Part shown: positions 8,601 through 63,911 of the stretch, in pieces
Layout: each line of letters starts with the position of its first letter
Position numbering within the stretch: the first letter of the stretch is position 1
Origin: a virus
IMG/VR virus record: IMGVR_UViG_3300025005_000002
Location: 1 to 64,000 of that record
DNA: 64,000 nucleotides
Reading direction: 5' to 3' (one strand)
Position numbers and translations under genes: made by a program
The notes under the pieces: model-generated
The model's database searches: none
What the model saw: only the letters and a program-made list of their open reading frames with translations
What the model was told of the DNA's origin: nothing

Positions 8601-10663
8601 ATAATTTCGGTAAAGTAGTAGCTGGGTTGGTTGCTTCTGGAGTTGGCAAATTATCAACTGAGCTTAGTAAGACACAAGATGATTTTAAGGGTATAGGTGA
8701 TAGTGTATCAAATATAAAAACTGGTAAGATGAAAGATTTAATAATTACTACTGGAGAACTTGGTGATAAGGTAAAGAGTACTGGTATTAATGTTGATGAA
8801 TTTAAAGCTATGTTAAAGGAATTTGGTGATACTGCCGGTACTACAGATGAAGAATTTAAAAAACTTGAATCATCAATGGGTGCCCTACAACAGCGTACTG
8901 TTTCTATGAAGTTTGGTGGTGAGGGATTGAAGTTGGTTGGTGATACTATTGAAGAGCTGGATGCTAAGTTAAATAAAATAAGTTTTGATAAGGCTAGGTT
9001 TGAGTTTGCAACGCTTCAGGTTATTACAGATAGAACGTTTCTTAGCATAGGTAAGAGTCTGGAGAAGATTAAGGCATTTAGTGAAACTAGTGAAGCAGCT
9101 AAGACTATGATGACTGAATTGATGACCAACATTAATGAAGAAGTTACGAAATGGAATGCTCAATTTGTTAATTCTAGTAGGGAATTAATTAATAATCAGA
9201 AGCAAGTACTTAGTGCACAGCGACAAAATGTAAATGAGATGGCAAATTTTGCAGTACAGTTGGCAGATGCGGCTCGAGCTATAGAGGTTGCAAATCAAAA
9301 TATTACTTCTATTAAACGTGCTTTTGCTGAACAAGCAGATCCAGTAATTGAGGCACAAAAGGCTGTGCTTGAATTACAGGCACAAGAGAAGCAAGCGATT
9401 GGTGATGTGGTTGGATTCCACATGTTAAGGATCGAATTATTAAAGAAAGAGTTAGAATCGCAACAGAAATTGGCTGTTGAAGCTAAAAAGACAGCACAGA
9501 CTCAGAAATTAACTGCGGCGGATCGTTTGTCTGCCCTGCAGAGAGAACAGCAAGCACGTTTGAATTCTGCTAGGGTTGGTTCTGAATTACAACGTATGGA
9601 TCAAAGGTTAGGTGGGAATCCAGAGACTGAATTAAATCAGGCTGAAAAAATTGGGGAAGAGATTAAAAAAGTACAAGAGGAAATGTTTAAGGCTAATATG
9701 GCAGTTGCGGAACTACAGAAGAGAATCGCAGAATTAGATATGGCTCGTATTAAAGAAGAACAAACGTTGGCACAAAAGAAATATGAAATGGATATGAATT
9801 TGATTGGGGAACAACGTGGGCAGCTTGTAATACAACAGAATATTTCTAAGGCACAGTTAGATGCGGCGCAGCAGACTGCACTAGCATTGTCTACAAAAGT
9901 ATATGGTGAAAATGACCCAAGGACTCAGGCTATGAAGGAAGGATTTGCTGAGGCCAATAAAAAGATTATAGGATCTTCAGAAGAATCTAAAGCTATCAAG
10001 CAAGATTTCCTAAAGAGTGCTGGTGTACAGGAAAAGAGTATGAGTGAAATGACTAAAGGTATAAGTGAGTCTAATGCAGTTTTATCGCAGATACAGGGGC
10101 TTATGACTAGTGCTAAATCAGATATAGGTGGATTGCAGAGTGGGATTACTAAAGCATTTGAAGTAAACATTGATAAATATTCAGAAACCATGGCACGTAT
10201 TCTGGCTGAGGAAATGGTTAAAAAAGAACAGAAGTTATCTGGTACATTAGAGAAAGCACCAAAAGATAATATGATTGCAGCTGATACTGCTGCTAAAGAT
10301 GCAATAGAAAAAGCTTCGATAAATTGGTCAACCATATCACAGAATATGTTAAATCAGAATACTATATCATCAAATCTAAATAAGGAATTGATTGGGAAGA
10401 TCGAGGGATTCCAACAGAAAGTGGTAGATGCTACAATTAACTTAACAACTGGTATTGGTACTTCAATGAGTTCAGTGGTTGATGCTATGCGGCAATGGAA
10501 AGATAAACCAGTTCAATTGTCTATTAATGTTACTAGTACTGGGAAAGATAAAGACAATACTGTTGATATATTATTAAATGATAAGAGTTGGAAGACTACC
10601 ACAAATAAACAGGAGACATTGGGGATCACATTTGGTGACTTAGGATGGACACCAGGGGGATAA
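5639..10663 (+). CDS. Tail tape measure protein
   Basis: 1674 aa, helical/coiled-coil, Ala/Lys rich with a central hydrophobic region; follows the chaperones. Confidence 0.9.
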   Translation: MSDFAGGQGNVEFKESIGLQLVVKFDQWLAGLQQSEKAMNEFGADVVKFTNGMTSGFIAAQTKLEKSASKITGMFKAVRNELAKTTAVWGTASLAMAQHAATIERSMFALEKAAQGSGRSFSGQLQLIEDSIGGVASRADLLASSVSMMTTALDPNQMKQFVDVVKDTSAALGTDFSANIEHAVASLKTMDIRLLANMGIMVDQQEVIKKMAIKFPGADPETLSLQQKQAALLDVIIDKTRLFAGANKEISEKGLMAWAEFKENLKDISIAIGKMFIPAWNEVAKVLAYVTKGIKNFFENESVQKFGATVAKIVVPAMMLLLTAFTALVPIVGILLKIMTVAPFVALTMAVVQFTKVLVGTGSVTQAMSAFGGALKKMPDPISLVWNGLKVLKAMYGEVGKEMTRMATAGEASGKTFTNMFVAIKNIWPQLKAMFLASKTATDVKNITGVPIMADVGKDAIAKAKEIIGPIKGFREQVSSFGVAIKSVFSSLAAGAAGGIDNVRKMGAALMLAFGKGTINMLAAFRNGFLSVVAAIRIGTVAMASLARIILKVALPLVVFTLAIEGVFKAINMLKEAYIRHKHGSAALRDEVEALKKEYESLAKAMNKAKPKEQKATRQDIYNYAERENKAGKNLTDEWLKNTKVEEAQTKAGRNNIRAVVDQKRAMIDLRNSVSDLSVEYEKLATNYGEIALKANSSYMKVKTFIEGLKIQENMYESILSKASRMNDKDLQQYIAKIESERKLRVDEYVASAQKLNPGISDKEIEDAKKQANKFVDDQIAMYKDPKLATARLQFVRKGQSALRDFMKSDDFTAELIAQIKIGEGKIKNLESEMLADKEGINRDAREKEIEGIKTVNAQKLALVEENISAELNAYKGYRDQLVSLFEAEQFNKLFLKLTNSVKTFSIQVQNVKPGNMVKVTDAIKTAITPMDNMAKATVKTARELKGAAFAVDMMADAMGRQMEYGEGMIDILGLAGKSYDYLYNKAYNFGKVVAGLVASGVGKLSTELSKTQDDFKGIGDSVSNIKTGKMKDLIITTGELGDKVKSTGINVDEFKAMLKEFGDTAGTTDEEFKKLESSMGALQQRTVSMKFGGEGLKLVGDTIEELDAKLNKISFDKARFEFATLQVITDRTFLSIGKSLEKIKAFSETSEAAKTMMTELMTNINEEVTKWNAQFVNSSRELINNQKQVLSAQRQNVNEMANFAVQLADAARAIEVANQNITSIKRAFAEQADPVIEAQKAVLELQAQEKQAIGDVVGFHMLRIELLKKELESQQKLAVEAKKTAQTQKLTAADRLSALQREQQARLNSARVGSELQRMDQRLGGNPETELNQAEKIGEEIKKVQEEMFKANMAVAELQKRIAELDMARIKEEQTLAQKKYEMDMNLIGEQRGQLVIQQNISKAQLDAAQQTALALSTKVYGENDPRTQAMKEGFAEANKKIIGSSEESKAIKQDFLKSAGVQEKSMSEMTKGISESNAVLSQIQGLMTSAKSDIGGLQSGITKAFEVNIDKYSETMARILAEEMVKKEQKLSGTLEKAPKDNMIAADTAAKDAIEKASINWSTISQNMLNQNTISSNLNKELIGKIEGFQQKVVDATINLTTGIGTSMSSVVDAMRQWKDKPVQLSINVTSTGKDKDNTVDILLNDKSWKTTTNKQETLGITFGDLGWTPGG

Positions 10664-10664
10664 G

Positions 10665-11075
10665 ATGCCGTATTTAGGTGATATTATATTTGCGTATCCA
10701 GTTGATTGGGTGGATGCTAAACGTCCAGTTGCTGGGGCAACTTATACGTCTATTAATGGTAGTACTGTTTCACAAAAGATCTTAGATAACACAACCATTG
10801 GAAAGCCAATAACATTAAGTCTGTCATGGATTAACCATACTCAATATGAATTACTATGGGGATACTATAATTCTGTATCTTCTTATACATTACAGATTAT
10901 TAGTGGAGGGGCTACTTATACTGTTGCTTTCCAGGGTGGGACCGATGCTTTTCAATTTACTCCAGTTGTACCTGAGGTACCATATTCTTATAGAAGTTTA
11001 ACCGCGCATACATTAACTGGTTCTTATTATGATGGCACCATTAAACTTATATGCTTAGGTGTAACTGGTGGGTAA
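10665..11075 (+). CDS. Putative distal tail protein
   Basis: Immediately after TMP; small beta protein. Confidence 0.5.
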   Translation: MPYLGDIIFAYPVDWVDAKRPVAGATYTSINGSTVSQKILDNTTIGKPITLSLSWINHTQYELLWGYYNSVSSYTLQIISGGATYTVAFQGGTDAFQFTPVVPEVPYSYRSLTAHTLTGSYYDGTIKLICLGVTGG

Positions 11076-11093
11076 ATATTATAGGAGTTTTAA

Positions 11094-13268
11094 ATGCCAG
11101 GTGTAGTGAATCCAAGATGTATGGTATACATTGATAATGCTGATTATACTTCGTATTTATCTACTATTTCAGTAAATCATGAAGTACAGACTTTGTCGCC
11201 CACATATACTATAATATTCAGTAAAAATTTACCCATTACTGGTGGCGAGGGATTTGGTATTTATATGGGATATGGTAGTACGCTTGTCCCAATGCTTACT
11301 GGTGGGACAATCTCAACATTTAGTAGAACTTTAACGCAGCATGGTGTAGAATTTGTTGTTAATGGTCGTGGGCCATTGTCTAAGTTGTTAGATGAGGCAC
11401 CAGAATTAGATCAGATTTACGTGCCTACGTGGGATAAAGCTGCGTTGAATGATAAGGGTGAATGGGTCAAAACGGCATGTGGGGTATCCAGAACACATCC
11501 AGTTCCATTAGGTATTGATCCAAAACAAGATGTTAGTGAATATGAGATTTTTAGTGCTGATTGGACCGTTCATTCTTTGTTACAAGATATTCTAAAAAAA
11601 TTAGGATTAACGGGAGTATTAAACATACCAGATTTTAAATATAGGGAAGTATTTAAAATACTAAGAACGCAGACATGGTATTCGGCAATTCAACAATTAG
11701 TTAGTGTGTGGGAACCATTAATATTTATGCGTAGTAATATTGTATATATATTAGACACAGATGTAGCATTACCAGAATCGTCTAATATCCAGTATGGTCC
11801 AGATAGTTGTATGGTAACTACAATAAATTATTCTAAGAATGACATAATTAATAGGATTATAATAAAGGGTGGAGTTGATGAGAGTGTAACAGAACCAGAA
11901 AAAAAAGATGTATGGATTCAACCAATTGATTATATGACAGAGATAATCCCAGACGATCTAGGTGTGTGGGCAAACGAGACTGCATCTAGTGAACATCCAA
12001 CCCCAGGGTCTGGTTCTGGTGGATTTACTGGTGATAGGATTAAACACGCATATTTTAAACCTATGTTTGGTGATCCAATATTAGCCTGGACAAAAAAGAT
12101 ACAATATTATAAAGGGAATGCAATTGGATATACAATAGAAAAGAATTATTATAGAGCACAAGGTAATTATGGGTCAGACCAGTCAGTATGTACAAATATA
12201 ATAAAAAAACGGACTCAATCGTGGATTGTCAATGGTTATTACAATAGTGATTTTACTAATACGTGGATATCTGGAAGTCTTTATATAGAAAAGGGATTTT
12301 CTGGTGGTACAATAACTGATGCAGCAGATCCTACAACAACTATTGGCGATGTGCCATCGACGTATATCTCTATTGGTACGGTGGCAACTTTAGAGGGTTC
12401 ATCATATGAAACAGATATTATGAGTGGAGACGTTATTGCTAATCCTACTTATGGTGGGTTTTCCCTTTGGAGGCCAGTAGAATGGATTAAGGTGCGTGAT
12501 ATAGAAGAAATGGCCGATACGGTAACTACTTCATCGTTTTCTTCTTCAGTAAGTAGAGAATTTGGGATATTACCCAAAAATAGTATAACCAGTTCTGCAA
12601 TTGTTGGATTATCTGGGTCTGATACTAGGGCTTATTATTTGATAGGCTCACCAGTTACTGCTTTTAAAGATTTGTTTAATATGCAAAAGCAGGGCATGAG
12701 GTTATCATATAGGATTATAGCTGAACGTGTTGCGCAGGTAGATACAAAATATGATATGGCTATTAAGCAAAATACACTGTATGATTACACTAAAATGACA
12801 AGTGATTATGATTATCCAGTAGTTACCACTGATACTGAGATTATCCCTACAAATCCAGTATTACAATCAAGTAACAAAAAGAAACCACTATATCAATTTG
12901 AAGAGTATTTTGAAGATGAGGACAGTATAGCAAAATATGGGTATAGACCAATAATAACATATTATGACCCATCAATTTTAAATCATAATGATGCACAAAG
13001 GCTAGCCAATAAGGTATTCGCCAAGAGTGGCAGGATAGAGGAAGAAATATCAATACAATCTACAATTGGTAACCCTTTATTATATACTGGTAAATCTATA
13101 ATATTAGAGTCGTCTACATATAAACAGATAAATTTTGTACTGCAGAATTATGAGAATACCACCATACTTGGTGGCGAGTTTATAATTAATGGGATTCGGC
13201 ATAATTTTACTGATGCTGATGGGTTTAAAACTGAACTTTCATTAAGGAAACTGTGGAAATTGTACTGA
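11094..13268 (+). CDS. Putative baseplate hub/tail-associated protein
   Basis: 724 aa after the Dit-like gene; C-terminal SIAKYG...NGIRHNFTDADGFKTELSL resembles gpD/gp27-like hubs. Confidence 0.55.
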   Translation: MPGVVNPRCMVYIDNADYTSYLSTISVNHEVQTLSPTYTIIFSKNLPITGGEGFGIYMGYGSTLVPMLTGGTISTFSRTLTQHGVEFVVNGRGPLSKLLDEAPELDQIYVPTWDKAALNDKGEWVKTACGVSRTHPVPLGIDPKQDVSEYEIFSADWTVHSLLQDILKKLGLTGVLNIPDFKYREVFKILRTQTWYSAIQQLVSVWEPLIFMRSNIVYILDTDVALPESSNIQYGPDSCMVTTINYSKNDIINRIIIKGGVDESVTEPEKKDVWIQPIDYMTEIIPDDLGVWANETASSEHPTPGSGSGGFTGDRIKHAYFKPMFGDPILAWTKKIQYYKGNAIGYTIEKNYYRAQGNYGSDQSVCTNIIKKRTQSWIVNGYYNSDFTNTWISGSLYIEKGFSGGTITDAADPTTTIGDVPSTYISIGTVATLEGSSYETDIMSGDVIANPTYGGFSLWRPVEWIKVRDIEEMADTVTTSSFSSSVSREFGILPKNSITSSAIVGLSGSDTRAYYLIGSPVTAFKDLFNMQKQGMRLSYRIIAERVAQVDTKYDMAIKQNTLYDYTKMTSDYDYPVVTTDTEIIPTNPVLQSSNKKKPLYQFEEYFEDEDSIAKYGYRPIITYYDPSILNHNDAQRLANKVFAKSGRIEEEISIQSTIGNPLLYTGKSIILESSTYKQINFVLQNYENTTILGGEFIINGIRHNFTDADGFKTELSLRKLWKLY

Positions 13269-27871: not shown

Positions 27872-28140
27872 TACAACCAGATAGAAAAGCTATGGAAAGA
27901 ATGTCAAAGATTGTTAAGGATCGCATGGCTGTACATCGTATGAATGTTCAAAAGCCAGCATTAGATTTGGCGACTAAATGTATTAATATGATATTATCAC
28001 ACCCAGAGATTATACGACCAGAGTGGGATACTGATGAAGAAAAGAAGGTCATTATTGATGAATTGAAGGCAAGTATTTATAAAGAAATCATTAGTTGGTT
28101 AGACAAAGAAATTGGTACAGATAACATAACTTTTGGATAA
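27868..28140 (+). CDS. Hypothetical protein
   Basis: 90-aa coupled ORF. Confidence 0.55.
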   Translation: MIQPDRKAMERMSKIVKDRMAVHRMNVQKPALDLATKCINMILSHPEIIRPEWDTDEEKKVIIDELKASIYKEIISWLDKEIGTDNITFG

Positions 28141-28143
28141 ATA

Positions 28144-28497
28144 ATGGGATATAATGAAGTCATATTAACAGATGCAAATTTAAATAGGGTAACTTCTATC
28201 CCTATTGATTATTACATTAAAGACACCAATGTTGTTTGGAAGGGGTTTGTATATAATAGTACTGATTTAGAAATTGTTGATTGTAGGATTGCAACATCAA
28301 ATTTATATGATGGCGTATTTTCAATAAGTGGCGGTGGCATTACTGGATTCTGGCCAGTAACCTCAAATTGGGATACTACTTGTACAATCGGAGCAATAAT
28401 AAGTGGTGGGATATCACCAATTTTATTGAATATATTTATTTCCGGTGGCTCAAGTTTGGATGGTTTACAAACTGCCGCTCTATATATCTCACGATAA
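28144..28497 (+). CDS. Hypothetical beta-rich structural protein
   Basis: 117 aa with three ISGG motifs. Confidence 0.55.
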   Translation: MGYNEVILTDANLNRVTSIPIDYYIKDTNVVWKGFVYNSTDLEIVDCRIATSNLYDGVFSISGGGITGFWPVTSNWDTTCTIGAIISGGISPILLNIFISGGSSLDGLQTAALYISR

Positions 28498-28554
28498 TTA
28501 TTAATTAATCTCAGTACATCTAGCAGGTCAATTAGGATCTCCACCTAACACCTG

Positions 28555-28583
28555 TTGTATAAGAGTAATAAATATAGTATAAT
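28555..28583 (+). promoter_or_regulatory. Sigma70-type promoter
   Basis: TTGTAT, 17-bp spacer, TATAAT; AGGAG RBS before ATG 28620. Confidence 0.65.
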
Positions 28584-28619
28584 TTTATTTTAAATATTTA
28601 ATTTAAATAGGAGTAGTAT

Positions 28620-29624
28620 ATGGCATTCCCCGATGAATGGGCATACCGCAAATCAATTACTCTCAGTCGTGCTTCCGGTGCTGTCACCAATTACCAGATG
28701 AAGGTGTTAATTGGTGAAAGTTCTGGTGCCACAGGAGAGGATGTAGATTGCGGGGCTCTCTGCAAGACTGACTTCTCTGATCTGCGCTTCACCAAGGCAG
28801 ATGGTACTACGCTTCTCGATTACTACATCGAGGACGTGACCGGCACCACGCCGAACCAACTGGCAACCGTCTGGATCGAATTCGACTCTATCGGCACTGG
28901 CGCGACCACCTTCTATATGTACTACGGGAATGCTGGTGCTACCGCCGTTAGCAACGGAGCAAACACTTTTATCCTGTTCGAGGATTTCAACGCCCTTAAC
29001 GATGGGAATCTCAACGGGCAGAACGGATGGTCGGGACACGTCAATTGGGATGTTGCCACAACCACTAAGTACGAGGGAGCCAAGGCCGCGCAATCGGCAT
29101 CGGGCGGCACCACCGTCTACATCGACAAGGCGATCTCTTCCGGAGGGGCCGGCTACCATGTGTTCATGCAAGCCCGGATGCGGCATTCAGCCGTTTCAAC
29201 CGCGAATGGGTTGGATATCTACCTCAACGAGGGGACAAACCAGAACTCTGGGATTGCCATAAGCTCAGGTCAATTTGTCGCTGTGGTTTCTCCCCCCTCT
29301 TGGGTGAACATCGGGAAGGTCGCGTCGAACAACACCTGGTACAAGGTGGTCCTGGCGATCGACGCCGTGAGCTCTCATAAGACCTGGGTGGACGATGTTC
29401 AATACTCTCCCGCGAACCAAACCAACATAACGAATTTCTCGACAACGGTGAACAAGATCCGCTTGGAACAGTACACTGCGGGCGGTACTGCGCTCGTCGA
29501 TCAGATCATGGTCGGATATTACCTGCCGACTGGCCCCGCTTGGGGAGCCTGGGGCAATCAAGAGGATCTGTTGGGAGGGATTATCCCTGTCATGTTTGTT
29601 CAATATCGTAGGAGGTGGTCATGA
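28620..29624 (+). CDS. DUF2341-domain protein with C-terminal lectin-like domain (candidate receptor-binding protein)
   Basis: WAYRKSITL...NYQMKV...DFSDLRFT..DG..LLDYYIE...TVWIE is the DUF2341 signature. Confidence 0.75.
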   Translation: MAFPDEWAYRKSITLSRASGAVTNYQMKVLIGESSGATGEDVDCGALCKTDFSDLRFTKADGTTLLDYYIEDVTGTTPNQLATVWIEFDSIGTGATTFYMYYGNAGATAVSNGANTFILFEDFNALNDGNLNGQNGWSGHVNWDVATTTKYEGAKAAQSASGGTTVYIDKAISSGGAGYHVFMQARMRHSAVSTANGLDIYLNEGTNQNSGIAISSGQFVAVVSPPSWVNIGKVASNNTWYKVVLAIDAVSSHKTWVDDVQYSPANQTNITNFSTTVNKIRLEQYTAGGTALVDQIMVGYYLPTGPAWGAWGNQEDLLGGIIPVMFVQYRRRWS

Positions 29625-30322
29625 GGTATCTCAAAACTAACACAGCAGTAGTAATAACGGTTGGCCCTTTCTACGACAGTACGGATGGGGTAACGATTGA
29701 GAATAACCTTACGCCCAGTTATGAACGGATTTCTGCGGTTGTAGATTTGGGTGATGGTAATGCGCCTACAATTGTATTAGACAATATAGCTGGTGGTATT
29801 TCTGGTACATCTAATGATTTAAATTATATTACAAATTGCGATGCTGGTTTAATGCAATTAGAATTGTCAGCAGATGATACAAATTATCTTGGTAATCTTT
29901 TTGTTACTATTACTGGCAATGTCTCTGGTAGTGTCACTGGTGCAGCTACTCATGTTCCAGTGTTTCATGAATTTTCAATTATATCGTCACAAATGTGGGG
30001 GGTAATGTTTGGGACTGGGAATTTAAATGCCGATATTAAAAGTTTAAATGGTGATACTGTTGCCGCAGGCAATCTTTCAAAATCAGCCTCTACGATTTAC
30101 CAGGGGACTGTAACTGGGGCAGCTACTATTAATACCCTAATTGATTCTGGGTTAAATCAAGTTTATACAGACCATTGGAAAGGTCGTATTGTAATTTTTA
30201 GTAGTGGGGGATTAAAATACCAAGCTACAGATATTACAGGGTTTACTTCAGCAACTGATGAATTAACATTTACCACACTTACCGCAGCGCCATCTGGAGC
30301 GGATACTTATGTAGTGATCTAA
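29621..30322 (+). CDS. Structural protein, hypothetical
   Basis: GGAGG RBS before ATG 29621; T/G-rich. Confidence 0.6.
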   Translation: MRYLKTNTAVVITVGPFYDSTDGVTIENNLTPSYERISAVVDLGDGNAPTIVLDNIAGGISGTSNDLNYITNCDAGLMQLELSADDTNYLGNLFVTITGNVSGSVTGAATHVPVFHEFSIISSQMWGVMFGTGNLNADIKSLNGDTVAAGNLSKSASTIYQGTVTGAATINTLIDSGLNQVYTDHWKGRIVIFSSGGLKYQATDITGFTSATDELTFTTLTAAPSGADTYVVI

Positions 30323-47730: not shown

Positions 47731-48327
47731 TTATATATAGAGAGTCTGGTCGTGTACAAGGTCATAATATACTATATATTATAATACGGAGGGGGCCCAA
47801 TTTGGATATACACATATTTTTCACGGAAATAATATAGATTCATGGATAGTGATATAGATTCACGTCTCAGATTATTGTGCGAGGCCATTTTTGCTCTGCC
47901 GTGGTCCTTTGGTGGTAAAAGTAAGATGGACAAAGTTTGGAGTAGATTAGTATATGCTGGATATCTAATTAAGAATTACCAGGAAGTAGTGAAGGTCCAT
48001 ATTTAGTCATGATGTACTTGTGCACGTGTAATAATAATGAAGGTGGAAAGGGTATAAACAAATATATCACCAAATGGGAGGTATGGAGAGCCCTTAGGAA
48101 CGCAGAAATAGCAATGTTAAAATACAAAACAAAAGGAGATAACAAATGATTAAGATCATGATAATCATCTTCGTTTTAATATTTGCCCTATACATTTTAC
48201 GAAAAGTTGCCGAGTACAATTATAAACGGTGGGGTAGATTCGATGAATAAGAAATATCTAAAGTATGATCCGTTACACCAGCAAGGAAAGAGAGGAAGGG
48301 GAAAAAAGGAATGATGACGAAAGAAGC

Positions 48328-51300
48328 GCCGCCGCGCCAGCGGCGAGGGGAGGGAAGGATGAAGCCGATCAAGGCGTGGGCGATAGGAACATTTTCGGGC
48401 GGTAAACTGTTGGGCATCGTTAGATACCAACTCAAAATGAAGACGAGGGAACCGTGTCTATACCATACCAAGGCTGACGCGCTCCGTGATGTCGAAATTG
48501 CCCTGCCGGAGGATATAACCGCTCGCCCCGTCCGCGTGACGATCACGGTGGAGGAATAGGGGGGAGAGATGATGGAAAGATGCGGCAAATGCGGGATGGT
48601 AGAGGAAAGTTCAATCCACGACATCAACAGTCCAGATACAGAAATACGAAGGGTGGCGCATCACTTCGAGTTGGTAGCCCCATGCCCTCGATGCGCCATA
48701 AAGGACGCCGCCCTCGCCGCCGCCAACGCCGAGAAGGACTTCTGGAAGTCGCACGATAAAGATGCCGACATTGTACGCGATTCCTACAACAAGGCCATTG
48801 AGGAAAGCGATCTTATTCGCGCTGACCTCGCCATCGCCAAGGCCGAGCTGACACGGCTGCGGGAGGCGATTGGGTGGGCAGAGTCTCACGCCCAAATATA
48901 CGCCACTGTCGGCGGATATAGATACGTTGATTTCGCATCCGAACTACGTCGCCGCGCCGGCGGCGAGGGGGAGGGCGGAATGATGTGGTGGTGCTGTTCC
49001 GCAGACTATCCCGATCACGATGAGAATTGCAAAGGAGGTGAGGGAAGGATGACGAGTGATCTTACTTGTGAGGATTGCGGGAGGGAGTTGCAGTTTGGCG
49101 TGGATGGGGTTTGTCGGTGTGGGAAACAACTATGCTTTGACTGTCACGAAAAGAATCACAAACGTTGCTATGAGATACCGGTACCTGGTGTGAAGGTCCC
49201 GGTGGGGGAATAGGAGGGGACGTGGACACTATAAGTTGTCAGCATGGCAATCTCGCCCGGTCCTGCGAAATCTGTGCATTGATCGCCGAGCGGGACGCGC
49301 TGAGGGAGGAAAACACCCGGTTCCGAGAGAAGCTGGACCGGGAGAAGATGGCGAAGATATTATGCGGCGGCAGAATGCGATGGAACGGGCTGTTCGAACT
49401 CACCCGCGACGGGTACAGAAGCGATGCCGACGTCCTGATCGCCTATCTTACCGAGTAGGAGGGGAACATATGTTACACCCGAACACAGGAATTGATCTCG
49501 GCAGGGAGGCTGACGAGGTTCGCAAGGAGAACGCCTCCTTTCGCGCCGCCCTCGCCGCCGCCGACGCGGAGCTGACGCGGCTGCGGGAGAGTAACGCGAG
49601 TCTGCTTGAAGGACTAAAATGCGTTGCCGACTTCGCATCCATGCCGCCCCGCGTAAGCCATGGCGCAAGTAACGGGAAGGATGAAATAGACAAACTGATC
49701 GCGGACATCGCCCTCGATTTATTGAAGCGGGTTGAATATAGATTGAGCCGCGCCGACGGCGAGGGGAGGGAAGGATGAGCATTAATTGTGGATCGTGCGG
49801 AACGCCGTTGTACCACATTGACGAAGCCTGCCCGAATTGTTTGGCCGGGTCTCGGCTTGTCGATAGGCCACCAACACACCATATTCTCCCATGCCCCCAA
49901 TGCGCCCGCTTCCGAGAGAAGTTGGACAGGGAGAAGATGATTGAAACGGTGCTCGCGGGAACGAAAGGGGTATGGACATACGATACCCTTACCGATTTCC
50001 TTATTAAATATCTCACCGAGTAGGAGGAAACAATGTACCAAGTATGCACGTGCCCGCAGTCGAATCTTACGGACGGGGATCCACATTGTTCCGTTCATGG
50101 GCAACCGTCGGAGTATAAGACTTATTCGTATTGCGAATCCTGTGTCGCCCTCCGCGCCGACCTCGCCGCCGCCAACGCCGCCAAAGAGGAAGAACAGAAG
50201 CGAAAGGAGTATTACCAAAATATCGTCTATGCGGTATGCAACGTACTCGATAAAATAAACGGATCGGCAATATGTTGCGGTACGAAAGACACTCCAACAA
50301 ATGAAGTCCAGGAAGCGATGTGCAGTCTGCAATCGAGATTGGCGGAACACACTCGCTGGGTATTACTAAATGCTGTTGATAAGAACGCATTACAGGAAGC
50401 GGAGGCCCACGCCAAGCGCCTTGAGGAATATATGCTCAAGGGCGTCGCGTTCAGGGATGAACTGCAGGCCCGCGTGAAAGAGTTGGAGTGCCAGAAGAAA
50501 GCACTCCAGCAAGTGAACGGGGAAACGGAATACAGGTTGTGCATGATACGGGAGGCGATAAAACGGAATGTAATAGACGCGCCAGACTTGCAGGCGGGAA
50601 ATATGAACGAAGCATATTTGGCATCTCTTGAATTGCAGCGTAGGAAAGAAGCCCTTACTGAAGCATACACCTCTTCCCCCCCATGCCGACACGAAGAGGA
50701 AGCGAAGCGGCTGAGGGAGGAATCACAAAGTGGGTTGGCGATGACTTCCTGCCCAGTCTGTGAGAGTGATGGCGCAAACACAAATGAATACAGGATCAAC
50801 AAGGAAATACACCGGCTACGGGAGGCGGTGGAATGGGCGCTTGGCATGTTGGATGACAATTGCGATCGGAGGTATATCCAATCCGAACTCCGCCGCCGCG
50901 CAGGGGGTGTCGAATGATCGCCGCCTACCTGAAGGAGGGAAAATGATGACGAAAACCGAGTGGAAGGATTTCGAGCGGGTTGAGCATCTGGCTGATGCCG
51001 TGGATAACCATGGCGTCGGATTCGGGAACCCACCAATGGATGACCAGATGGCTAGAACTATCCTCGCCGCCTATCGGGAACTGAAGGAACGCCGGGAGGA
51101 CGAAGAGTGGCTGAAAAAGCATTACGCTGATCTTATCTATCGTAATGACGGTGCGGTCAGTCTCCATGCGGCAGGAATAATCGGCAGGGCTATAGGACCC
51201 ACCCTCCACGACGCTGTGGACGTCGCCCGGGGAGGAAAATGATGACGTTGCAGATGCTGTGGCTAACCGTTGTTGTCATAGTGGGGTTCGCATATGTGAT

Positions 51301-51639
51301 TTACTTATTGTGTAGGATATTTGATGCGATCAACGCCGCACGGGGGAAATAAAGATGCTGAAGGAAGAGAGAGTATTCCGCCTGCGACTCAAGAAATTGT
51401 GCGGTATTGCCAACTGCGACCCACGCCCCATTCTTCGAGAACTAACATGGGTCGTGAAAGCCGTCCGGGAGGACGATGCGAAAGTGGTTGAAGGATGCGG
51501 AAACGACGAATTATATGAAGCCATCTCTGATGCTGTCCGGAAGGGGAAGCCGGTGCAACAGTGTACGTATTGCGGCTTAATGAAAGAAAATATTACGTCC
51601 AATGGTGAATGCAGAACGTGCCGCGCTGCGCATATATAA
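48328..51639 (+). other. GC-rich island of short genes built from shuffled repeated modules
   Basis: Abrupt GC rise; repeated junction blocks; genes 48359-48559, 48569-49213, 49222-49458, 49470-49778, 49775-50023, 50033-50917, 50943-51242, 51355-51639. Confidence 0.75.
50033..50917 (+). CDS. Coiled-coil/Cys-rich mosaic hypothetical protein
   Basis: AGGAGG RBS; CxC, CxxC, LRADLAAANA and ELRRRAG modules. Confidence 0.6.
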   Translation: MYQVCTCPQSNLTDGDPHCSVHGQPSEYKTYSYCESCVALRADLAAANAAKEEEQKRKEYYQNIVYAVCNVLDKINGSAICCGTKDTPTNEVQEAMCSLQSRLAEHTRWVLLNAVDKNALQEAEAHAKRLEEYMLKGVAFRDELQARVKELECQKKALQQVNGETEYRLCMIREAIKRNVIDAPDLQAGNMNEAYLASLELQRRKEALTEAYTSSPPCRHEEEAKRLREESQSGLAMTSCPVCESDGANTNEYRINKEIHRLREAVEWALGMLDDNCDRRYIQSELRRRAGGVE

Positions 51640-51848
51640 CCGTCTTCCGCGTTAAAGGAGAATGGGGATGTCTGAAATAAAGATTAGTTGTAATCAACAA
51701 GTTACGGCATTCCTTTACCAAGCCATGATGTATTTGAATCGTCGGCGGCATATGTCCCTTGCTCTGACAACCAATTTTCGCATAAGGGTAAGGCTACACA
51801 ATTTGTGGCAAAGGGTACACGGGTTATCATAACATGAGAGGAGAAAAT

Positions 51849-52103
51849 ATGAAAATAAGAAAGGGTGATATATATGAGGATTGTGCGTTTCACCCGGTGA
51901 GGTGCGAGTATATAAATGGCGATGATATCGAAGGGGTGTCATTACTTGATGGGTCCCGACCGCGCAGATGCAGTATACGGCATTGTGGGGTACGCAAAAT
52001 GACCAAGGATGAAGCGGCAGGTACAATTGCGATTTATGGGCAAGGAGGGGAGCAGGGTTTGTGGGAATATAAAAAACAACAAAGGAGTAACAAAGTAAAA
52101 TGA
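51849..52103 (+). CDS. Cys/His-rich hypothetical protein
   Basis: GAGGAG RBS; YEDCAFHPVRC...CSIRHCG. Confidence 0.6.
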   Translation: MKIRKGDIYEDCAFHPVRCEYINGDDIEGVSLLDGSRPRRCSIRHCGVRKMTKDEAAGTIAIYGQGGEQGLWEYKKQQRSNKVK

Positions 52104-54513: not shown

Positions 54514-55440
54514 ATGCAGGAATTACCGGCAGAAAAGATTGCCCAGTTAAGAGAGCATTTTATTAAGATAAGCTGTCAACCAAGGCAAGAAATAATTAAT
54601 AAGATCGCTAGACAAATGTCAAATTTGGATATTGAAATTTTGGAGTGCCAGAAGGCATTAGTAGCCCGAATAAGAGAGCTGGAGGTTAAGAAATTTGAGT
54701 ATGACGCAATGCAGATCAAACCATCGGCAGAACTTAAGGGTGCGGAATTTGACAATTTGCTCCTTCATCCTGATATTGAAAATATTGAATTTGAGGGGTA
54801 TGGGATTATAGTAACCACAAAGCCAATCAAGATTGAGTATGGCGGGGAAATATATTTTATTGGTCGATTTAATATATATCTTGAAACAAATGGTGGTATT
54901 GGGTGGTTGTTAAGGTTTAAGAATTTAGATCAAAATATATTTGGTCATCCCCATCCGCATATGCAAACAAATGGGGTACCATGTCTGGGGAATATTAAGG
55001 AATGTATGCCCCATATGATAGGTGCCAATCAGTTTGCTGCGGCGATTAATGTTGCCATTCAATATTTAAAGTCATATTCAGATTCAGATCAATATGGGAA
55101 ACCTTATGTTATATTGGAAAACTGGCCCAAAATAAAACGAGAAAAGGAGAAAGTCGATGAAGTTAGCCGAGGCGTTGATCGAGCGGAAGGGATTACAGAA
55201 GAAGATCGAGCGATTATCGGAGCGGTTGGTGAACAATGCCAAGACTCAGGAGGGGGAAACGCCCTCCGAGAATCCCCTGGAGTTGATCAAAGAGATCAAC
55301 GGGACGAACGAGGAACTGACGCATCTGATCATAGAGATCAACAAGACGAACGCCCTGGTATACTTGAACCCAGCGCAAATGCCGGTGGTGACGCTGGCCG
55401 ATGCGTTGGCCAAGAGGGATGGGATCGCGAAGAAGCGTAA
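54514..55440 (+). CDS. Coiled coil + E2/UBC-like domain protein (paralog 1)
   Basis: HPHMQTNGVPCLG matches the E2 HPN-x7-C spacing; colinear with 63042-63911; 3' part overlaps the next gene. Confidence 0.65.
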   Translation: MQELPAEKIAQLREHFIKISCQPRQEIINKIARQMSNLDIEILECQKALVARIRELEVKKFEYDAMQIKPSAELKGAEFDNLLLHPDIENIEFEGYGIIVTTKPIKIEYGGEIYFIGRFNIYLETNGGIGWLLRFKNLDQNIFGHPHPHMQTNGVPCLGNIKECMPHMIGANQFAAAINVAIQYLKSYSDSDQYGKPYVILENWPKIKREKEKVDEVSRGVDRAEGITEEDRAIIGAVGEQCQDSGGGNALRESPGVDQRDQRDERGTDASDHRDQQDERPGILEPSANAGGDAGRCVGQEGWDREEA

Positions 55441-55630
55441 TATACTGGCGAAGTTCGCGGAAGCAGCGACAGAACCAGTGAGGGCGTATGGACGGTTGGA
55501 AGTGAAATATATCCGTACGATGAATATACCGGCGATTCAGAAAGAGATCGATGCTCTCGCCGCCGAGTATAATGCGTTAGATGCGAAGATCCAGGGAAAG
55601 AATTGGGAGATTGACCTGGTAGTGGACTGA
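55157..55630 (+). CDS. DIP1984-family (DUF6847-like) coiled-coil protein
   Basis: MKLAEALIER..LQKKI..L..RL..NAK.QEGE.P.E.P...I...NW signature; AAGGAG RBS. Confidence 0.8.
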   Translation: MKLAEALIERKGLQKKIERLSERLVNNAKTQEGETPSENPLELIKEINGTNEELTHLIIEINKTNALVYLNPAQMPVVTLADALAKRDGIAKKRNILAKFAEAATEPVRAYGRLEVKYIRTMNIPAIQKEIDALAAEYNALDAKIQGKNWEIDLVVD

Positions 55631-62465: not shown

Positions 62466-62693
62466 GTGAGTGCACAGGAGCAGATTAAGAAGAGGTCGCA
62501 TAAAGGCGGTGGGGGGGGCGGTTCTAATGATTTTGACGGTCTTGGGCTTGAAATGGCCGTTATCCCCGGCGTTGATGAAGTGTTACGCAATTTAGATAGT
62601 GATATTAAGAATGTTGGTGGGTTGATTAATAGGACACAGGAAAGGATTAATCAGAGACAGGACCGGCGTCCTTCGCATAATTGTGAATGTTAA
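62466..62693 (+). CDS. Pup-like small protein with non-canonical CEC C-terminus
   Basis: GTG start with AGGAGGT RBS; SAQEQIKKRSHKGGGGGG...DEVLRNLDSDI resembles Pup AQEQTKRGGGGG...DDLLDEIDDVL; directly after arc. Confidence 0.55.
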   Translation: MSAQEQIKKRSHKGGGGGGSNDFDGLGLEMAVIPGVDEVLRNLDSDIKNVGGLINRTQERINQRQDRRPSHNCEC

Positions 62694-63045
62694 TTTTGGA
62701 GGTGGCACAATGTTTAATGGGCTGCTTGTTTGTTTAATACTGGCTGGTGCGGTGGCATCAATTTCTTGCTCCATTAGTAAGGCTGGGGTTATGAGACCCA
62801 TCAGGCAATGGGTCCGTAAAAAGAATGCATGGCTTGGTAAACTTGTGTCCTGTGTATATTGTACTAGCCACTGGATATCAGCGATATTAGTTATAATTTA
62901 TAGGCCAATCCCGTTGCGTTTAGTACAACCAATTGATTCAATAGTTGCCATATTTTTGATAGTGACTATGGCAGCTGGGATGATTTATTGGATTGATTGG
63001 TCTATTGGTTTTCAACCAGATCCACCACAAGAGGGTAATCAATGA
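62683..63045 (+). CDS. DUF1360-like membrane protein
   Basis: TM helices with LVSCVYCTSHW motif. Confidence 0.65.
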   Translation: MNVNFGGGTMFNGLLVCLILAGAVASISCSISKAGVMRPIRQWVRKKNAWLGKLVSCVYCTSHWISAILVIIYRPIPLRLVQPIDSIVAIFLIVTMAAGMIYWIDWSIGFQPDPPQEGNQ

Positions 63046-63911
63046 GGGTACATCCAGATTCGGTGGTTGCTTTAAAAGAGGCCTATTTCAAGAATAAACC
63101 CGAATTATCTAGGTTTGTGGCTGGTCGTTTAAAGGTCAACAAACAAACCGTTGTTGGTGTACATGCCAAGCATTTTAAGGAGGTATGTAAGGTACTAAAA
63201 TTACCAATAAGTAAGTTAAAAAGTAGTCGTACTGTATATCGTGGAGTGTATATGGCTACAGTAGACGAATCATTTAAGTCAAAACTGAAAGATAAAAGAC
63301 AAGAAATGCGGCAAAAATATATTGAAATAGCTAGTGGTTTAAGGTCAAAAAAAGCAGTGGAACACCTAAAACATGCGATACATGATCAAGAAGCACGCAT
63401 CCACGCGATTCAAATAGATTTGGTAAATAACCTAAAAAATCTTGAGGGGAAAAATAGAGAATATAAAGTAATTTGTGAAGGTGATCAGGGTACCACAGAA
63501 AACAAAGGTGTTGAATTTGATAAGTTAATGGCTAATCCTGATATAGTAAGGATATTTATAGATGATAATTATTTTACTGTATGGACTAGACCTATTTATA
63601 TTAAGTATAATAATAAGATATATGATGTTGGTGAATTTAAAATAGTATTAGCAATTAACCCTACGGAATTTATAGTAAAAATGCGTAATTTGACCAGAAA
63701 GATTAAAGGTTATGCTCATCCACACATACGTAATAATGGGCGGCCATGTCTTGGTAATATCCAAGAATGTTTACCTCAAATGATTGCAGCACGGCAATTT
63801 GCAGCCGCTATTTTTGTATGTATTCAATATTTAAAATCAGTTAATGATAGTGGATATTATGTAAATATTCACAATTGGCCTTTAAAAATGGCAAAGAGAA
63901 GAGGGAAATAG
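63042..63911 (+). CDS. Coiled coil + E2/UBC-like domain protein (paralog 2)
   Basis: HPHIRNNGRPCLG; colinear with 54514-55440. Confidence 0.7.
   Translation: MRVHPDSVVALKEAYFKNKPELSRFVAGRLKVNKQTVVGVHAKHFKEVCKVLKLPISKLKSSRTVYRGVYMATVDESFKSKLKDKRQEMRQKYIEIASGLRSKKAVEHLKHAIHDQEARIHAIQIDLVNNLKNLEGKNREYKVICEGDQGTTENKGVEFDKLMANPDIVRIFIDDNYFTVWTRPIYIKYNNKIYDVGEFKIVLAINPTEFIVKMRNLTRKIKGYAHPHIRNNGRPCLGNIQECLPQMIAARQFAAAIFVCIQYLKSVNDSGYYVNIHNWPLKMAKRRGK

Follow-up and report, generated by a model that had tools for sequence, protein, structure and literature searches.

We analyzed the first 64 kb (64,000 nucleotides (nt), hereafter the window) of IMG/VR virus record IMGVR_UViG_3300025005_000002, one contig of 178,008 bp that we read as a phage genome because it encodes a Phage_capsid_4 protein (PF25209, E 6.9e-48) at genome 171570-172598. 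On the basis of sequence comparisons and structural models, three paralogous proteins of this phage appear to be active E2-type enzymes with a ubiquitin-conjugating (UBC) fold, which form part of a family without a database model and would perform the middle step of the phage's own ubiquitin-like protein (Ubl) cascade; we consider this reading correct with a probability of roughly 0.75. Paralogs 2 and 3 were found to be adjacent to and co-oriented with the genes of a JAB metalloprotease, a ThiF-type E1 and a putative Ubl, in a cassette with the order E2-JAB-E1-Ubl, and paralog 1 lies 8.5 kb from this cassette. The paralogs and their parts are located as follows:

54514..55440, + strand: E2-like paralog 1, full open frame, 308 amino acids (aa), from the list of open reading frames (ORFs) and the BLASTP match to paralog 2
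54514-55156, + strand: family-conserved part of paralog 1, aa 1-214
54529..54714, + strand: N-terminal long helix of paralog 1, aa 6-67, ~62 residues, from the AlphaFold2 model
54727..55128, + strand: UBC/E2-like domain of paralog 1, aa 72-205, from the AlphaFold model, VIA-align and Foldseek
54952..54984, + strand: active-site motif H147-P-H149-x7-C157 of paralog 1, followed by L-G-N-I
54982-54984, + strand: Cys157 codon of paralog 1
63042..63911, + strand: E2-like paralog 2, 289 aa, first E2 of the cassette
63486-63902, + strand: UBC-like domain of paralog 2, aa 149-287
63717 onward, + strand: HPH of paralog 2, with the Cys236 codon at 63747-63749
genome 63946-64578, past the window end: E2-like paralog 3, 210 aa

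Fold, active site and conservation of the E2-like paralogs

A preliminary description of this DNA had placed two dispersed paralogs in the window, and both strings were found where it put them: HPHMQTNGVPCLGNI (HPHMQTNG...) starts at nt 54952, which is aa 147 of the ORF from 54514, and HPHIRNNGRPCLGNI (HPHIRNNG...) starts at nt 63717, which is aa 226 of the ORF at 63042-63911, with 8,765 nt between the two motifs. Paralogs 1 and 2 were 39% identical over 202 aa (BLASTP, E 6e-42), a level that indicates true paralogy and not a chance resemblance. The count of two holds for the window only, as a domain hidden Markov model (HMM) run on six frames of the 178-kb genome revealed exactly three copies, the third of which begins 35 nt past paralog 2.

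The AlphaFold2 model of full paralog 1, built on a 68-sequence alignment, had a predicted local distance difference test score (pLDDT) of 93.3 and revealed a helix at aa 6-67 followed by a short helix, a β-meander, the HPH loop, the Cys and two helices. When the domain was modelled alone, the pLDDT was 92.5 and the predicted template modelling score was 0.86; its order was helix α1, β-meander, HPH loop, Cys, two C-terminal helices and a terminal W-P. The Foldseek matches in the PDB were almost all E2 enzymes, with E values of 0.009-0.09 and template modelling (TM) scores of 0.3-0.45. VIA-align, in which the domain was compared with 48,161 representative chains, showed E2S (1zdn) as the best match, with a Z-score of 6.5 and a root mean square deviation of 4.2 Å over 119 of 149 aligned residues, and Ubc13 (4ip3) also reached a Z-score of 6.5. 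All 50 of the VIA-align matches listed were UBC/RWD-type folds, including BubB (Z 4.8), Cap2 and CdnG-E2 (Z 4.4-5.0) and the RWD and kinetochore RWD domains (Z 5-6). The predicted architecture thus contained the helix, antiparallel β-meander, Cys loop and long helix of the UBC/E2 superfamily, albeit at moderate scores, and this match carries weight because the listed matches were uniform and covered the whole domain. The UBC-like fold proposed in the preliminary description was therefore returned by AlphaFold, Foldseek and VIA-align together, in the form of E2, UBC and RWD folds.

At the sequence level, a phmmer search of all PDB sequences with the paralog 3 domain gave 16 matches at E<=10, every one of them an E2. 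The top match was UBE2W (E 0.041), which itself has HPH as the phage proteins do, and the two active sites were aligned with identical spacing (aHPHVYeNGdpCLgn against vHPHVYsNGhiCLsi), which places the phage Cys on the E2 catalytic Cys. UBE2L3, up to its active site, was also reached by the family profile (E ~0.5), and phmmer searches of the PDB sequences with paralog 2 and with the paralog 1 domain gave no E2 match.

We found HPH-x7-C in all three phage paralogs (with Cys152 as the Cys of paralog 3), so that each has an HPN-type triad seven residues ahead of a conserved Cys. Among the 165 family proteins retrieved, which contained 175 domain matches, the Cys was present in 170 domains and at least one Cys-bearing domain was present in every protein, in agreement with the intact catalytic Cys of the earlier account. 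The corresponding column counts were 174 for the Pro and 166 for the second His; the first His was replaced by Ala in 51 domains, and the G-x-x-C-L-G-N flank was near invariant.

The family proved to be large, as a profile search of 1.84 billion representatives retrieved 4,484 members at E<=1e-3, 2,789 at E<=1e-10 and 506 at E<=1e-30, and its ESM-Atlas clusters were 53-73% Uroviricota where taxa were known. Searches of Pfam, PHROGs, PADLOC and NCBIfam revealed no match to the E2-like proteins, with the exception of a weak one to phrog_17107 (E 6e-4), whose function is unassigned, and ten long family members were likewise without a PF00179 or Prok-E2 Pfam match. Long members of 640-675 aa include P0058, P0060, P0063, P0070, P0074, P0076, P0079 and P0090. 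Some long members contain two E2-like domains, the C-terminal one of which lacks the Cys in several, and this arrangement resembles a pair of an E2 and a UEV-like domain in one chain.

Ahead of the UBC-like domain, the long helix of paralog 1 matched coiled coils in VIA-align and carried family-conserved Gln and Arg residues (the Q40/R48 columns). In a one-register heptad test against shuffles, the three paralogs gave values of 0.34, 0.38 and 0.05, a weak signal that was not significant in paralogs 1 and 2. Of the long coiled coil reported previously, the single helix of ~62 residues was thus confidently predicted and the heptad pattern was weak; coiled-coil pairing of the modelled helix is plausible. 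Paralog 2 is built of an extra N-terminal region (aa 1-80), the long helix and the UBC-like domain, in that order; the extra region is common to Saccharibacteria cassette E2s such as P0010 and is absent from paralogs 1 and 3.

The E2-JAB-E1-Ubl cassette, its upstream genes and its occurrence

The remaining part of the cassette lies beyond the window:

genome 63946-66185: paralog 3, JAB, E1 and Ubl
genome 65955-66185 (L001:5955-6185, where L001 is genome 60001-76000): putative Ubl, 76 aa, ending K-I-R-G-N

The JAB protein (247 aa) contained a complete JAMM site (E...HxHx7SxxD), and thus the JAMM/MPN+ metal site, whose residues E74, H139-x-H141, S149 and D152 were invariant in nine of nine cassette homologs. 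Its HMM matches were weak (PADLOC JAB, E 0.016; BRCC36 and Rpn11, E 0.19-0.7), and its single sequence retrieved nothing useful from the PDB. The E1 (233 aa) consisted of a single ThiF domain (PF00899, E 1.6e-23) with a GxGxxGS nucleotide loop, Asp123, Arg128 and a near-invariant Cys186; its best NCBIfam matches were ThiF adenylyltransferases, and it matched the PADLOC E1-E2 models over the Rossmann part only.

The Ubl had no Pfam or NCBIfam match, and its nearest ESM-Atlas cluster was ThiS/MoaD-like (score 0.91, a lead only). The Ubl domain was closed by K-I-[RKQ]-G-N in nine of the ten loci read (L001, L005-L011, L017 and L018), while that of the Nitrospinae locus L017 ended in G-G. A conserved Asn thus follows the Gly at the Ubl end. 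In L008, the Ubl N-terminal motif restarts directly after G-N, a sequence pattern that suggests a Ubl tandem, and four other loci have a longer extension after G-N. The presence of residues after the Gly matches the JAB-trimmed Ubl precursors shown for the bacterial Bil system (PMC10557695).

The E2-JAB-E1(-Ubl) order was also found in L002/L006, L005, L007, L008, L009, L010, L011 and L018. In particular, two contigs from Saccharibacteria metagenome-assembled genomes (MAGs; L006 and L007) carried homologs that were 71-72% (E1), 54-56% (JAB) and 41-54% (Ubl) identical to those of the phage, and the same order was present in Buchananbacteria and Moranbacteria MAGs and in further metagenomic contigs. 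The cassette lay among cellular or housekeeping genes in L002/L006 and L018, and on one contig a 1,072-aa family member headed it, between recR and the ribosomal, adk and secY genes. In Methylomirabilota (L012-L016; for example L014:7230-8372), an E2-like gene of ~380 aa stood among housekeeping genes without an adjacent E1 or JAB, so that any partner would lie elsewhere; its neighbors were a PpsR-like kinase, GalT, a peptidyl-prolyl isomerase and a S-adenosylmethionine hydroxide adenosyltransferase. A tblastn search of 50,697 GenBank phage records gave no match, and IMG/VR pattern scans revealed no relative, although records near this genome may be missing from these collections.

In a maximum-likelihood tree of 80 domains (quick search; midpoint root for drawing only), the three phage copies fell in one clade of 19, with a Shimodaira-Hasegawa-like approximate likelihood-ratio test (SH-aLRT) value of 96, and this clade was nested among Saccharibacteria E2s. 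Paralogs 2 and 3 were placed together in a subclade (SH-aLRT 99), and paralog 1 grouped with P0026, P0032, P0024 and L003:10523-11434 (SH-aLRT 95). This nesting and the 71-72% identity of the E1 hint, as far as sequences go, at a host among the Saccharibacteria or other bacteria of the candidate phyla radiation (CPR), or at acquisition of the module from that lineage. The related phage contig L003/L004 also carries dispersed short E2s, ~5-8 kb upstream of its ARC-like ATPase, which indicates that the dispersed position is conserved.

Three further genes precede the phage cassette:

60693..62462, + strand: ARC/Mpa-like AAA+ ATPase, encoded immediately before the cassette (PF00004, E 2.3e-32)
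62466-62693, + strand: small protein of 75 aa with C-E-C at its end, encoded between the ATPase gene and the E2 genes
62683-63045, + strand: DUF1360 membrane protein, between the ATPase and the E2s

The ATPase matched TIGR03689 (pup_AAA) at E 2.5e-89, under the equivalog cut-off, and a homolog with 44% identity flanks the cassette in Saccharibacteria L007, where a 63-aa ORF that ends in C-G-C occupies the same slot as the small protein (L007:8043-8249). Because L007 has all three, the trio of ATPase, C-x-C peptide and DUF1360 protein is common to a cellular genome. The arrangement suggests a functional link of the cassette to an unfoldase, which we infer from a trio that flanks the cassette in some loci only.

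Proposed function and comparison with known systems

Several observations weigh against an E2 role for these proteins. The structural scores were moderate (Z 6.5, TM 0.3-0.45, Foldseek E ~0.01), and a VIA-align Z-score below 8 may reflect a common arrangement only. Each sequence match to an E2 was non-significant when taken alone, and the models PF00179 and Prok-E2_A to E were unmatched by paralogs 1 and 2 at E<=1 and by paralog 3 at E<=0.1. The profile matches of the neighboring JAB were weak as well (E 0.19-0.7), homology alone would connect paralog 1 with the phage E1 and Ubl, and the family is not always operon-bound, as the Methylomirabilota gene stands alone. The E2 identity of the paralogs is nevertheless supported, because fold, sequence, conservation and context agree.

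As the E2 lies in a conserved E2-JAB-E1-Ubl cassette, the phage E2s most likely serve the phage's own Ubl, and the phage itself is likely to encode an entire machinery for protein tagging. We infer the following chemistry. The JAB metalloprotease would trim the residue(s) after the conserved Gly of the Ubl, and the E1 would adenylate that Gly, possibly with formation of a thioester at Cys186. The Cys of the E2, which is Cys157 in paralog 1 and Cys236 in paralog 2, would then receive the Ubl, with HPH in place of the canonical HPN, and the E2 would hand the Ubl to target amines; the conserved proximity of a ThiF E1 and a Ubl speaks for such thioester chemistry. No E3 was recognized, and the variable N-terminal parts therefore most likely set target choice or oligomerization; the variable parts would be the long helix in all three paralogs, the extra 80 aa in paralog 2 and the possibly overprinted tail in paralog 1 (described below), and the three paralogs may correspond to three target sets.

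A broader scheme, to which we would give slightly less than even odds, is that the E1, three target-specifying E2s, the JAB and a Ubl cut at G|N constitute a self-contained phage system that is coupled to the ARC-type AAA+ unfoldase, a minimal 'tag and unfold' machine common to Saccharibacteria and other CPR bacteria that would tag host or phage proteins during infection. The E2 family would then be a distinct bacterial and phage lineage, with an HP[HN]-x7-C-L active site that appears more similar to that of eukaryotic E2s than do those of the described Bil, Bub and Cap2 proteins.

Among the alternatives, an action of the phage E2s mainly on the host's homologous system is unlikely, though it is compatible with, and not exclusive of, a cascade of the phage's own. 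The E2s would in this case accept host Ubl at the host E1 and either steer it to new targets or sequester it, in a host lineage, probably Saccharibacteria or other CPR, that carries the same cassette. The Saccharibacteria contigs with E2-JAB-E1-Ubl and their E1 and Ubl identities speak for it, as do the L002/L006 and L018 cassettes with their cellular or housekeeping surroundings, the nesting of the phage clade among Saccharibacteria E2s and the presence of three E2s against one E1 and one Ubl in the phage. In contrast, the phage's E1, JAB and Ubl directly follow its E2s, so that it needs no host components.

It is distinctly improbable that the cassette is a sulfur-carrier pathway like those of ThiS/MoaD or TtuB, with a Ubl thiocarboxylate produced by the E1 and a Cys protein that relays sulfur and does not conjugate. 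The minimal ThiF/MoeB-type E1, with its ThiF adenylyltransferase matches, and the MoaD/ThiS-like cluster nearest to the Ubl speak for such a pathway, whereas the phage cassette lacks a rhodanese, a cysteine desulfurase, ThiG/ThiH and MoaE, the predicted fold of the Cys protein is of the UBC type and comes with an HPN-type triad, and the Ubl residues past the Gly together with a dedicated JAMM protease fit conjugation and processing.

The preliminary description had proposed counter-defence, with phage E2s that intercept or mimic a host CBASS (cyclic oligonucleotide-based antiphage signaling system) Cap2, Bil or Bub, or that conjugate the Pup-like C-E-C peptide, and this we find very improbable. 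Known bacterial E1/E2/JAB systems do defend against phage (PMC10557695, PMC11601596), and the genes for the ARC-like ATPase and a small peptide closely precede those of the E2s. The proposed interception found no support, as the E2s had no PADLOC match and are followed by a simpler partner, the phage's own JAB, E1 and Ubl; the family moreover retains HPH and Cys, and the cassette also occurs among housekeeping genes. Nor was a link found between the E2s and the peptide, which ends in Cys and not in Gly, has a cellular counterpart ending in C-G-C and is no known E1 substrate. It is just as improbable that the proteins are non-catalytic UBC/RWD scaffolds (UEV- or RWD-like) that only bind the Ubl or another partner, for although RWD folds appeared in the fold search and some long members have a second, degenerate domain without Cys, the Cys is missing from UEV and RWD domains (PMC1779556), whereas here the Cys, Pro, second His and G-x-x-C-L-G-N are near invariant and are kept in all three phage paralogs.

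To place the proposed phage cascade among known systems, we compared it with those described. The phage E2s share the UBC-type fold, H-P-[HN]-x7-C-L and a Gly three residues before the Cys with UBE2W and other canonical eukaryotic or archaeal UBC E2s (UQ_con). They differ from the UQ_con E2s in the missing Pfam match, in a sheet with more strands, in only two predicted C-terminal helices after the Cys with an invariant W-P end and in the 60-residue N-terminal helix ahead of the domain; in addition, the partner E1 is a 233-aa ThiF-type protein and not a multidomain one, and no RING or HECT E3 was seen.

In the operon classification of Iyer et al. 2006, Type I and II BilABCD are types 6d and 6c (PMC1779556, PMC10557695). 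Bil is similar to the phage cassette in its four separate genes for Ubl, E2, JAB deubiquitinase and E1 and in the JAB-mediated removal of Ubl residues past the Gly (PMC10557695). Its gene order is Ubl-E2-JAB-E1 instead of E2-JAB-E1-Ubl, its E2s lack the His of the HPN position and use a downstream His (PMC1779556, PMC10557695), whereas the phage family keeps HPH, and its multidomain E1 has an inactive adenylation domain and a CYS domain, in contrast to the one short ThiF domain of the phage E1; none of these three Bil features was found in the phage cassette. The phage and CPR cassettes also lie in a phage and housekeeping-gene setting and not in defence islands.

Bub (operon type 6e) likewise comprises an E1, an E2-fold protein, a Ubl and a processing protease. 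Its oxyester intermediates, its E1 fused to a peptidase and its serine-protease deconjugase (PMC11601596) have no counterpart in the phage cassette, where the Cys is nearly invariant and the JAMM protease is encoded separately. CBASS Cap2/Cap3 (type 6b) and E2-CBASS combine a bacterial E2 fold with a catalytic Cys, a ThiF-type adenylation domain and a JAB, as the phage appears to do. In Cap2, however, E1 and E2 are fused in the manner of Atg7/Atg3/Atg10, the Cys is placed on a hairpin and the substrate is a cGAS-like enzyme (bioRxiv 10.1101/2022.03.31.486616), whereas the phage E1 and E2 are separate and no nucleotidyltransferase, such as the CD-NTase (cGAS/DncV-like nucleotidyltransferase) of Cap2 operons, was recognized in the cassette. 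The Pup-proteasome system (ARC/Mpa, Pup, PafA/Dop) resembles the phage locus in the succession of an ARC-like ATPase and a small, largely low-complexity protein. It differs in that the parts read revealed neither a PafA/Dop ligase nor 20S genes, the peptide ends in C-x-C and not in GGQ/GGE, and the phage conjugation genes are of the E1/E2 type.

The cassette therefore differs from types 6a-6e (PMC1779556), Bil and Bub in E2 motif, E1 architecture, gene order or chemistry. What we describe is an unmodelled E2 family in a distinct, phage-borne E2-JAB-E1-Ubl cassette with a triplicated E2, within a kind of system that is already known. No description of the E2 family or of a phage-encoded E1/E2/JAB/Ubl cassette was found in the literature searched, from which subscription journals were mostly absent. 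The known CBASS Cap2, Bil and Bub cassettes are host anti-phage defences, and here such a cassette resides in a phage. Should the enzymes prove active, tagging of proteins with Ubl would be a tool of the virus as well, CPR bacteria would hold an undescribed Ubl conjugation pathway, and a large family, with thousands of representatives and no database model, could be named. The combination of a canonical-looking HPH-x7-C site and a minimal ThiF-type E1 also bears on the origin of E2 enzymes.

The 3' end of paralog 1 and other features of the genome

The preliminary description ended paralog 1 at 55156. We found no stop codon there; the frame is open to 55440 and runs into a neighboring gene:

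55157..55630, + strand: DIP1984/DUF6847 gene, named 'septicolysin' (PF20935, E 9.7e-46; NF038048, E 6.6e-48)

Relative to paralog 1, this gene is read in the +1 frame, and the E2 frame covers the first 284 nt of it (window 55157-55440). Residues 215-308 of paralog 1 accordingly form a 94-aa tail rich in Gly, Asp, Arg and Glu in the alternate frame of the DIP1984 gene, which has its own AAGGAG ribosome-binding site 7 nt before the ATG. The G+C content at third codon positions was 0.70 in the DIP1984 gene, compared with 0.35 in the E2 core and ~0.3 in the phage.

The E2-DIP1984 pair was also found in phage contigs L003/L004, with the E2 frame entering DIP1984 at the DNA level; in L003, the E2 ORF at 10523-11434 overlaps the DIP1984 gene at L003:11289-11434. 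By protein sequence, P0026 (344 aa) and P0032 (288 aa) have the same kind of tail. When the codon order of DIP1984 was shuffled, the E2 frame stayed open for a median of 15 codons, and the observed length was reached in 1% of the shuffles for the window (93 codons) and in 8% for L003 (47 codons). The tail may be genuinely overprinted, or it may result incidentally from an imported gene with codons that end in G or C. A programmed frameshift that fuses paralog 1 to DIP1984 was also considered but not favored in view of the gene's own strong AAGGAG site and a stop in the DIP1984 frame at 55133-55135. A complex prediction for paralog 1 and the DIP1984 protein gave a score of 0.00 ('no answer'), which counts neither way on binding.

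The genome is ~36% G+C, and almost all of its genes are carried on the + strand. Against this background of ~0.36, islands of higher G+C were present in the window at 48001-52000 (0.50-0.53) and 28001-30000 (0.44). In addition, a 984-aa ORF with intein splicing and LAGLIDADG endonuclease domains was found at genome 146893-149847 (L019:6994-9948), and it is probably an intein within a large phage protein.

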